In this document: positions 1-762 of the stretch, one piece after another
Layout: every line of letters begins with the position of its first letter
How positions within the stretch are numbered: position 1 is the first letter of the stretch
Source of the DNA: Candidatus Spyradenecus sp.
GTDB taxonomy: Bacteria > Verrucomicrobiota > Verrucomicrobiia > Opitutales > UBA953
Length of the DNA: 64,000 nucleotides
Assembly: GCA_045535075.1 (NCBI GenBank)
Contig: JAZSKX010000001.1
Span: forward strand, 1 to 64,000
Direction of reading: 5' to 3'
Notes under the pieces: model-generated
Seen by the model: only the letters and a program-made list of their open reading frames with translations
Database searches by the model: none
Told to the model about the DNA's origin: nothing
Made by a program: the position numbers and the translations under genes

Positions 1-762
1 CACTACGACTCCGAACTCAACCTCGTCTACTACAACTTTCGCCACTATACGCCCTCGCACCGTCGCTTCCTCTCCCGCGACCCCATCGCCGAACAAGGCC
101 GCCTCAACCTCTACGCCTTCGTGAAAAACAACCCAATCCAAAAATGGGACAAGCTCGGACGTGCAATCCCTCAACTTGGCGCGGGACCGGACGGAGGATT
201 TCCCATTTATTGTCGAGACAGAATTGCGGAGTTTATGGTGTGGTTCGAACAGGAGAAGGCAAAACTGGAAGATCGAGATGAAGATGGAAAAAATTGGATA
301 GAGAAACTTCCCAAATGTCCAAATGCGTTAAGAAAAGTTATGAAGCAATTCAGAACGACACTTCCGTCTGGATGTACATACTATGAAGAGAGATTAACAT
401 TTATGTCTCCAGATTTATCTGAATGGACGTTAACATCAGACATTGTTTTTGAAGTAACTCAGATTTTGGGGCTTCTTTCGTGCGGCATGAGGTATCACCC
501 GTCGGGAAGTTATGAATTGCGAACTAGGGATACGAGTAAATACGACGGTCATGGGAATCAGTGTATTTACGACAACGAAGGAAATCTTATCAGAGAAATT
601 CCTACTGCTGGAACCGTAGATTGGGTCGGTCCTGGAGGTTCGAAAATTGAACATCGAAATGCAGATGTTCTTCAGTTTGAGAACGCAGTTCGCATTGATT
701 CGTCGTGCGGCGGGAATGGGAAATACGTTCGAATGTACTATGAGGTTCGCCCGAGTTGGTAG
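1..762 (+). CDS. Rhs protein, C-terminal part (5'-truncated by the window): end of Rhs core plus variable toxin tip (AMOP-like)
   Basis: Frame 1 is open from base 1: HYDSELNLVYYNFRHYTPSHRRFLSRDPIAEQGRLNLYAFVKNNPIQKWDKLG. This is the Rhs-associated core ending in the PxxxxDxxG motif, followed by a ~200-aa lower-GC tip. The ORF-track start at 121 is internal. Confidence 0.9.
   Translation, partial: HYDSELNLVYYNFRHYTPSHRRFLSRDPIAEQGRLNLYAFVKNNPIQKWDKLGRAIPQLGAGPDGGFPIYCRDRIAEFMVWFEQEKAKLEDRDEDGKNWIEKLPKCPNALRKVMKQFRTTLPSGCTYYEERLTFMSPDLSEWTLTSDIVFEVTQILGLLSCGMRYHPSGSYELRTRDTSKYDGHGNQCIYDNEGNLIREIPTAGTVDWVGPGGSKIEHRNADVLQFENAVRIDSSCGGNGKYVRMYYEVRPSW
4..87 (+). repeat. Rhs core homology block, second copy at ~2317-2400
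   Basis: TACGACTCCGAACTCAACCTCGTCTACTACAACTT... occurs nearly identically at both sites. Confidence 0.85.

Follow-up and report, generated by a model that had tools for sequence, protein, structure and literature searches.

The AMOP domain was defined in 2002, is present in isthmin-1, MUC4 and SUSD2, and has no established biochemical function. It has previously been described only in animal extracellular proteins. Here we analyse a bacterial relative that lies at the very start of the window, i.e., of the whole stretch of DNA that was analysed (the first 64 kb of contig C11 in genome G000 of Candidatus Spyradenecus sp., an assembly of 1.95 Mb in 18 contigs that is rated 99.45% complete). It forms the C-terminal tip of a truncated Rhs protein (window 160-762) and is followed by the open reading frame (ORF) 783-1544, which encodes a membrane protein. 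We consider it likely that the tip is an AMOP-homologous, enzymatic Rhs toxin acting outside the cytoplasm of the target cell, and that ORF 783-1544 is its immunity gene.

The closest described systems are the Rhs/YD polymorphic toxin cassettes, as portrayed in the parts of the survey cited here (PMC3482391). The locus resembles them in that the end of an Rhs core is joined to a variable tip of low GC content with an adjacent immunity-like gene, that orphan cassettes stand in an array, and that a relative carries an orphan immunity gene; it is unlike them in that the tip family lies outside the toxin families of Pfam and NCBIfam, that no type VI genes were found in the genome, and that the immunity candidate has 7-8 membrane spans. 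In kind, the system is an ordinary Rhs toxin/immunity cassette, but the toxin domain itself is not ordinary. A second parallel is given by the teneurins, adhesion receptors of animals that have their origin in bacterial Rhs/YD toxins (PMC3417536, PMC6297184 and PMC6425310, in the sections cited here). There, a part of a polymorphic toxin was reused at the animal cell surface and active-site residues were lost in animals (PMC3417536), and isthmin-1, in a similar way, lacks four of the invariant or near-invariant residues of the bacterial family described below. The teneurins took over the Rhs shell together with an HNH/EndoVII-type tip, whereas in the present case it is the tip domain alone that has relatives in animals.

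Among the matches listed in a literature search, nothing connected AMOP with bacterial toxins, and those that looked relevant named AMOP as an animal domain only. The cited parts of the 2012 survey of polymorphic toxins (PMC3482391) and of its companion review (PMC3417536) do not mention AMOP, isthmin or MUC4, and those of the isthmin-1 structure paper of 2025 (PMC12000326), in which the fold is described as distinct with a weak likeness to streptavidin only, mention neither toxins nor Rhs. Precomputed PF03782 labels already stand on a few bacterial Rhs proteins; the link between AMOP and Rhs is latent in the databases and undiscussed in the literature found.

An AMOP-like tip at the end of an Rhs core

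The features at the contig start are as follows (residues of the tip are numbered from its first codon):

1..159, + strand: final 53 Rhs core codons, closing with the cleavage-type motif ...NPIQKWDKLG; the contig start truncates the gene
160..762, + strand: AMOP-like putative toxin tip, 200 residues plus stop codon (protein P0001, residues 54-253 of the partial protein)
316..564, + strand: cysteine pair C53 (316-318) and C135 (562-564), corresponding to C3-C6 of isthmin-1
496..750, + strand: block with the invariant polar residues, a candidate active site (each 100% conserved among 100-112 aligned members)
496-498, 520-522, 559-561 and 619-621, + strand: invariant polar residues H113, R121, Q134 and D154, from the alignment
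652-654, 664-666 and 748-750, + strand: invariant polar residues H165, D169 and R197, from the alignment
783..1544, + strand: candidate immunity gene, coding for an integral membrane protein of 253 residues by hydropathy (7-8 hydrophobic spans)
1522..2652, + strand: next cassette, in which an orphan Rhs core fragment carries a short tip of another kind (TIGR03696 at residues 243-332, E 1.9e-16)

An open frame enters from the contig start and ends with the stop codon at 760-762. Its residues 2-53 match TIGR03696 (RHS repeat-associated core; E 8.7e-17, 61.4 bits, cut-off 32.5), and the tip begins directly past this match, which ends with residue 53 at ...NPIQKWDKLG; the motif is the DKLG variant of the usual DPxGL, and cleavage at this site is predicted only. 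The GC content is 0.52 at the Rhs core end of the window and 0.52-0.59 across Rhs core parts, and it falls to 0.39-0.46 over the tip and the gene that follows it. Such a drop is usual for exchangeable tip/immunity cassettes. The original prediction, made from the sequence of the window, had placed the tip in a toxin slot ahead of a membrane-protein gene, and both are real, with TIGR03696 directly upstream and the hydropathy of the downstream product in agreement.

It had also proposed that the tip resembles AMOP through an ordered series of motifs, all of which are present in the stated order, and the relationship is borne out by profile searches. With the tip as query, phmmer was run exhaustively against 1.84 billion representatives and returned 264 proteins at E<=0.001 (41 at E<=1e-10). 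The family profile (A1) matched isthmin-1 (PDB 9c6t, chain A) at E 8.6e-14, with profile positions 54-222 aligned to chain positions 78-232, and a domain-only profile (A3) matched it over the whole domain at E 7.8e-14 and matched no other PDB chain. When 43 single-stretch relatives were scanned against Pfam, AMOP was found at E<=0.01 in 26 of them and at or above the 25-bit gathering cut-off in 12, the remaining 17 had no AMOP match, and no other family was matched except Rhs repeat families; among a further 26 relatives AMOP was found at E<=0.001 in 10 and reached the cut-off in 4, with RHS repeats in 11, so that 16 of the 69 scanned reach 25 bits. The Pfam AMOP model gave no match at E<=0.01 on G401 and G402, two genomes that carry the family, and it therefore misses diverged members. 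In the ESM Atlas the nearest clusters, one bacterial and one eukaryotic, carry AMOP. Identity between the tip and isthmin-1 is about 22%; the comparison with the AMOP consensus covered isthmin-1 only.

A search for longer relatives yielded 2 proteins with alignment A1 and 11 with the domain-only A3, none of them demonstrably animal; the low yield of A1 is probably a consequence of Rhs words crowding out other candidates. Seven phmmer proteins that matched in several stretches (P0035, P0047, P0061, P0065, P0083, P0091 and P0101) were rejected as family members, being repeat proteins that match residues 114-186 only (six are NHL/beta-propeller proteins; P0061 has other repeats). This part of the tip (window about 499-717; ...YDGHGNQCIYDNEGNLI...AGT...) resembles a YD-repeat hairpin, and the NHL/beta-propeller proteins match it in 6-13 stretches each, which probably reflects a shared hairpin pattern and not homology.

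The predicted model of the tip (pLDDT 92.9) starts with a disordered linker of 10-15 residues and then shows the elements of the AMOP fold, namely a curved antiparallel sheet and helices at the N-terminus, in the middle and at the C-terminus. Among the 50 best structural matches listed, its sole match was 9c6t, human isthmin-1, as the proposed relationship would lead one to expect; known enzyme or toxin folds, the colicin M chain and streptavidin were not among these 50. No known toxin family fits the tip better than AMOP, since neither Pfam nor NCBIfam gave a toxin family (in particular no nuclease, ADP-ribosyltransferase (ART), deaminase or NADase family), nor did the 50 best structures. By family profile and predicted structure, then, the tip is truly homologous to the animal AMOP domain of isthmin and mucin-4, as a diverged bacterial relative. 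We place it in the AMOP superfamily as a bacterial homologue and do not regard it as a canonical AMOP domain, because its host belongs to the PVC bacteria and it occurs as an Rhs tip, whereas canonical AMOP belongs to extracellular animal proteins of the adhesion type.

Cysteine pairs and candidate active-site residues

Conservation was computed from 112 rows, each a single stretch with at least 110 matched columns of the domain model, at identities to the tip down to about 30%. Nine positions are 100% conserved (100-112 aligned rows each), namely W28, H113, R121, Q134, G151, D154, H165, D169 and R197, seven of which are polar; near-invariant positions are W46, Y137 and Y193 (98%), D138 and G141 (93%), and C53 and C135 (91%). 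The seven-residue polar set H113/R121/Q134/D154/H165/D169/R197 is a candidate active site, with catalysis predicted from conservation. Isthmin-1 retains R121, C135, Y137, G151, H165, D169, Y193 and R197, but it has K, H, G and N where the tip has H113, Q134, D138 and D154. The spacing H165-x3-D169 together with H113 suggested a zinc peptidase site of the LAS/M23 type, which was rejected, as no such fold was among the 50 best structural matches. The ligand order in LAS/M23-type peptidases also differs from that of the tip residues.

The cysteines behave as pairs. C53 and C135 are both present in 95 of the 112 rows, both absent in 9 and single in 8; the second cysteine of the 'CPC' motif and the cysteine just after R197 are both present in 37 rows (neither in 59, one only in 16); and the cysteine two residues before R121 and the second cysteine of the 'CC' motif are both present in 5 (neither in 104, one only in 3). 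In isthmin-1 the strictly conserved disulfides are C1-C8, C3-C6, C4-C9 and C5-C7 (PMC12000326, section 10, in the part cited here), and the three co-varying bacterial pairs, mapped by the order of cysteines in the alignments, are C3-C6, C4-C9 and C5-C7 of this set. The tip had been proposed to be a Cys-reduced AMOP homologue, and indeed, in comparison with the AMOP domain of isthmin-1 (PDB 9C6T), it is bacterial, sits in an Rhs slot and keeps one of the four disulfide pairs, C53-C135 (C3-C6); the second cysteine of CPC, the one before R121, the second of CC and the C-terminal one are missing, the tip ending just past ...EVRPSW. The bacterial Rhs member P0058 (46.9 bits to Pfam AMOP) has the whole animal-like cysteine pattern including the C-terminal cysteine, and in P0160 (50.5 bits) the cysteines of CPC, C-x-R and CC are present, the record ending at a cysteine.

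The same residues bear on the possibility that the toxin is not an enzyme and that the half-barrel of the domain, in its resemblance to streptavidin and other ligand-binding barrels, binds and thereby blocks or sequesters an envelope component, for instance a lipid carrier or membrane protein. A binding role would accord with the description of the isthmin-1 half-barrel as streptavidin-like (PMC12000326, in the part cited), but in that same structure the pocket position is occupied by the protein's own N-terminal helix, streptavidin is absent from the structural matches listed above, and seven polar invariants among 112 members at about 30% identity are more typical of a catalytic or metal site. 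We regard a non-enzymatic binder as unlikely.

The neighbouring gene and the proposed site of action

ORF 783-1544 begins 20 bases past the stop codon of the tip, and its product has positive loops on one side of its 7-8 hydrophobic spans; no family of Pfam or NCBIfam matched it. At the fetched related loci, the neighbour was defined as an ORF starting -40 to +200 bases from the stop codon of a profile-located AMOP-like tip, and it was scored under a strict rule as membrane-bound or signal-bearing if it had at least three hydrophobic windows of 17 residues, or one such window in its first 20 residues. A close downstream ORF was present at all 29 loci, and 26 of the 29 scored under the strict rule (13 multi-span proteins of 97-264 residues, and 13 proteins of 114-320 residues with a signal-like N-terminus, some with a lipobox-like cysteine), while the other three have N-termini that look signal-like by eye; in a genome-wide control, 191 of 736 ORFs of like size scored (26%), and 9% were multi-span. 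The neighbours fall into 15 groups without a BLAST link. To judge from a multiple alignment, 14 secreted neighbours probably make up one distant family, and none of 22 downstream proteins matched Pfam. On a plasmid of Moraxella bovis, an unannotated multi-span ORF of about 115 residues lies behind the tip.

Two related genomes add to this. In the sister genome G273, an AMOP-like tip is followed, with an overlap of 4 bases, by a 264-residue protein with 8 spans, which shows no similarity to the membrane protein of the window (BLASTP E 12). In the sister species G312 a copy of the membrane gene with 61% identity has been kept and the tip deleted (L039, G312:C16, 1217-2217), with only the last few tip codons remaining, joined to an Rhs fragment in another frame; the kept gene looks like an orphan immunity gene. 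The retention of a neighbour once the toxin is lost is classic behaviour of immunity genes. A complex prediction for the tip with the product of ORF 783-1544 scored 0.00, below the mark, the fold of the partner itself being uncertain, and speaks neither for nor against binding.

The mechanism that we propose is as follows. Once freed from the Rhs shell at the ...DKLG motif, the tip would act beyond the target's cytoplasm, either in the periplasm or on the outer side of the inner membrane, where the C53-C135 disulfide could form. Catalysis through H113/R121/Q134/D154/H165/D169/R197 would damage an envelope substrate associated with the membrane, for which peptidoglycan, a phospholipid or a lipid-linked precursor of the cell wall are guesses, and the producer would be shielded at the site of action by the multi-span membrane protein. 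Action outside the cytoplasm is proposed because the disulfide can form there and because the immunity proteins are located there. Colicin M-type bacteriocins degrade lipid II, and their immunity proteins are membrane-anchored or multi-span. They offer a possible analogy, with a soluble enzyme toxin that works on the outer side of the inner membrane and more than one type of membrane immunity, of which the mixture of multi-span and secreted or lipoprotein-type candidates seen here is reminiscent, but they are unlike the tip in that there is no similarity in sequence, or in fold among the 50 best structural matches.

Most characterised Rhs tips work in the cytoplasm, and the tip might do so as well, as a nuclease, NADase or ADP-ribosyltransferase, with the membrane neighbours protecting in some other way or not being immunity proteins at all. 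Exported neighbours also follow other Rhs cassettes of the genome, as given below, and may therefore not report on the AMOP tip. Against a cytoplasmic site, the cysteine pairs co-vary as disulfides, which do not form in the cytoplasm, none of the 29 downstream ORFs is plainly cytoplasmic, and no nuclease, ART, deaminase or NADase family or fold was matched (folds among the best 50); the known animal homologues, moreover, are all extracellular (PMC12000326, introduction, in the part cited). Taken together, this makes cytoplasmic action highly improbable.

A number of observations weigh against the reading of the tip as an envelope-acting AMOP-type enzyme paired with an immunity gene. The tip alone matches Pfam AMOP (PF03782) at E 0.017 with 15.7 bits, below the 25-bit gathering cut-off, over 36 residues (163-198, against profile positions 53-87 of 143), and phmmer with the tip against PDB sequences did not find isthmin-1, so that the placement rests on the family profile and the predicted structure. 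No enzyme or toxin fold was matched, and thus the term enzyme rests on the conservation of residues. Six of the eight other Rhs cassettes of the window genome also have a neighbour that scores under the strict rule, which makes exported immunity a trait of the whole Rhs system and not of AMOP tips alone (the whole system may aim at the cell envelope through some export route); furthermore, signal peptides were called by a crude test of hydropathy, and the loci are mutually related. The gene is truncated by the contig start with the Rhs N-terminus outside the window, and the tip may belong to a possibly silent orphan cassette rather than form the end of a full-length Rhs protein with its body on contig C5, at the edge of which a 1433-residue Rhs body sits (G000:C5:2-4300, - strand). 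Finally, neither the type VI sheath protein TssC (PF05943) nor PAAR (PF05488) was found in the genome, which thus offered no candidate delivery route.

Distribution, animal relatives and the cassette array

The family is widespread, mostly at the ends of Rhs proteins. A sample of 401 genomes (184 genera) from the window's phylum yielded the domain in 16 genomes (14 genera), a sample of 301 genomes from the phylum of the Planctomycetaceae genome G401 yielded it in 7 (4 of the 8 places in this Planctomycetota sample are short partial matches that may be spurious), and a pattern scan with a tight alignment (A2), one genome per species, gave four loci, two in Planctomycetaceae and two in Kiritimatiellae. 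A tblastn search of plasmids gave an Rhs orphan, on the plasmid of Moraxella bovis, and a non-Rhs protein of 616 residues, on one of the cyanobacterium Gloeothece. In the latter case (L049, Gloeothece citriformis PCC 7424, 2747-5197) the AMOP-like domain, outside Rhs, is followed by a multi-span protein of 169 residues. Further non-Rhs AMOP-like proteins in the stored set are P0113, P0160, P0163, P0164 and P0166, and the other architectures comprise an N-terminal signal peptide or membrane anchor with the AMOP-like domain, dockerin-linked proteins and InlB-type repeats; one non-Rhs AMOP-like protein has a weak bacterial SH3 match (E 0.0011, below the cut-off).

This spread bears on the further suggestion of the original prediction that the tip is a host-mimicking effector, i.e., not a toxin but an adhesion or signalling module of a gut bacterium that was recently acquired from an animal. 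The relatives closest to the tip, at 91-93% and 61-63% identity, are fragments of Rhs proteins, and the nearest named one is labelled at NCBI as Candidatus Spyradosoma, a gut-associated verrucomicrobial genus, which would fit a host mimic, as would the occurrence of animal AMOP proteins on mucosal surfaces (PMC12000326, introduction, in the part cited). However, the domain sits in Rhs tip slots next to a small membrane or exported gene at the 29 loci, and such slots with immunity-like neighbours occur in Kiritimatiellia, Planctomycetota, Cyanobacteriota and Moraxella as well, free-living phyla among them; in addition, the identity to isthmin-1 is low, and the sister species that retains the neighbour without the tip shows what is typical of immunity genes. 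This suggestion was not upheld, and we give it hardly any weight.

The derivation of AMOP from an enzymatic toxin fold, which had been put forward as well, is plausible from the pattern of conserved residues, and the comparison suggests that animal AMOP shares ancestry with a bacterial family of cell-envelope toxins. It is conceivable, if doubtful, that the animal AMOPs (isthmins, SUSD2, MUC4 and others) descend from a disulfide-bonded, envelope-acting Rhs toxin enzyme captured by an early animal much as the teneurins were, the direction of transfer being our inference. Were this true, animal AMOPs that keep H113, Q134, D138 and D154 may be cryptic extracellular enzymes, and the bacterial toxins would be a simple system in which to find the biochemical activity of AMOP. 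The large and diverse bacterial family in toxin slots, which is predicted to have the same fold, makes the function of AMOP in the medically studied proteins (isthmin-1, MUC4 and SUSD2) a tractable bacterial question, first of the target of the toxin and then of the animal AMOPs in which the site is retained. A further case would thereby stand beside teneurins and hedgehog, in which animal surface or signalling domains are related to bacterial conflict systems (PMC3417536, in the part cited).

A scan of the window's own genome found ten Rhs core ends, several of them at contig edges, and a single AMOP-like tip, the one described here. The second cassette at 1522-2652 makes the contig start a polymorphic-toxin array. 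It has 44 residues beyond its core end, and ORF 2564-2962 (132 residues, without a Pfam family) overlaps it in another frame; the second cassette (window 1522-2962) may thus have a frameshifted tip. The next ORF, 2838-3377, encodes 179 residues with one hydrophobic span. At 3367-3711 an Rhs fragment duplicates the final residues of the Rhs body on C5 (...NLTLVHTYEDKRD), and such Rhs repeats probably broke the assembly at several Rhs genes. Further along, a tRNA gene at 34865-34938 (- strand; Rfam RF00005, 67.6 bits) is the sole RNA family in the window at gathering thresholds.
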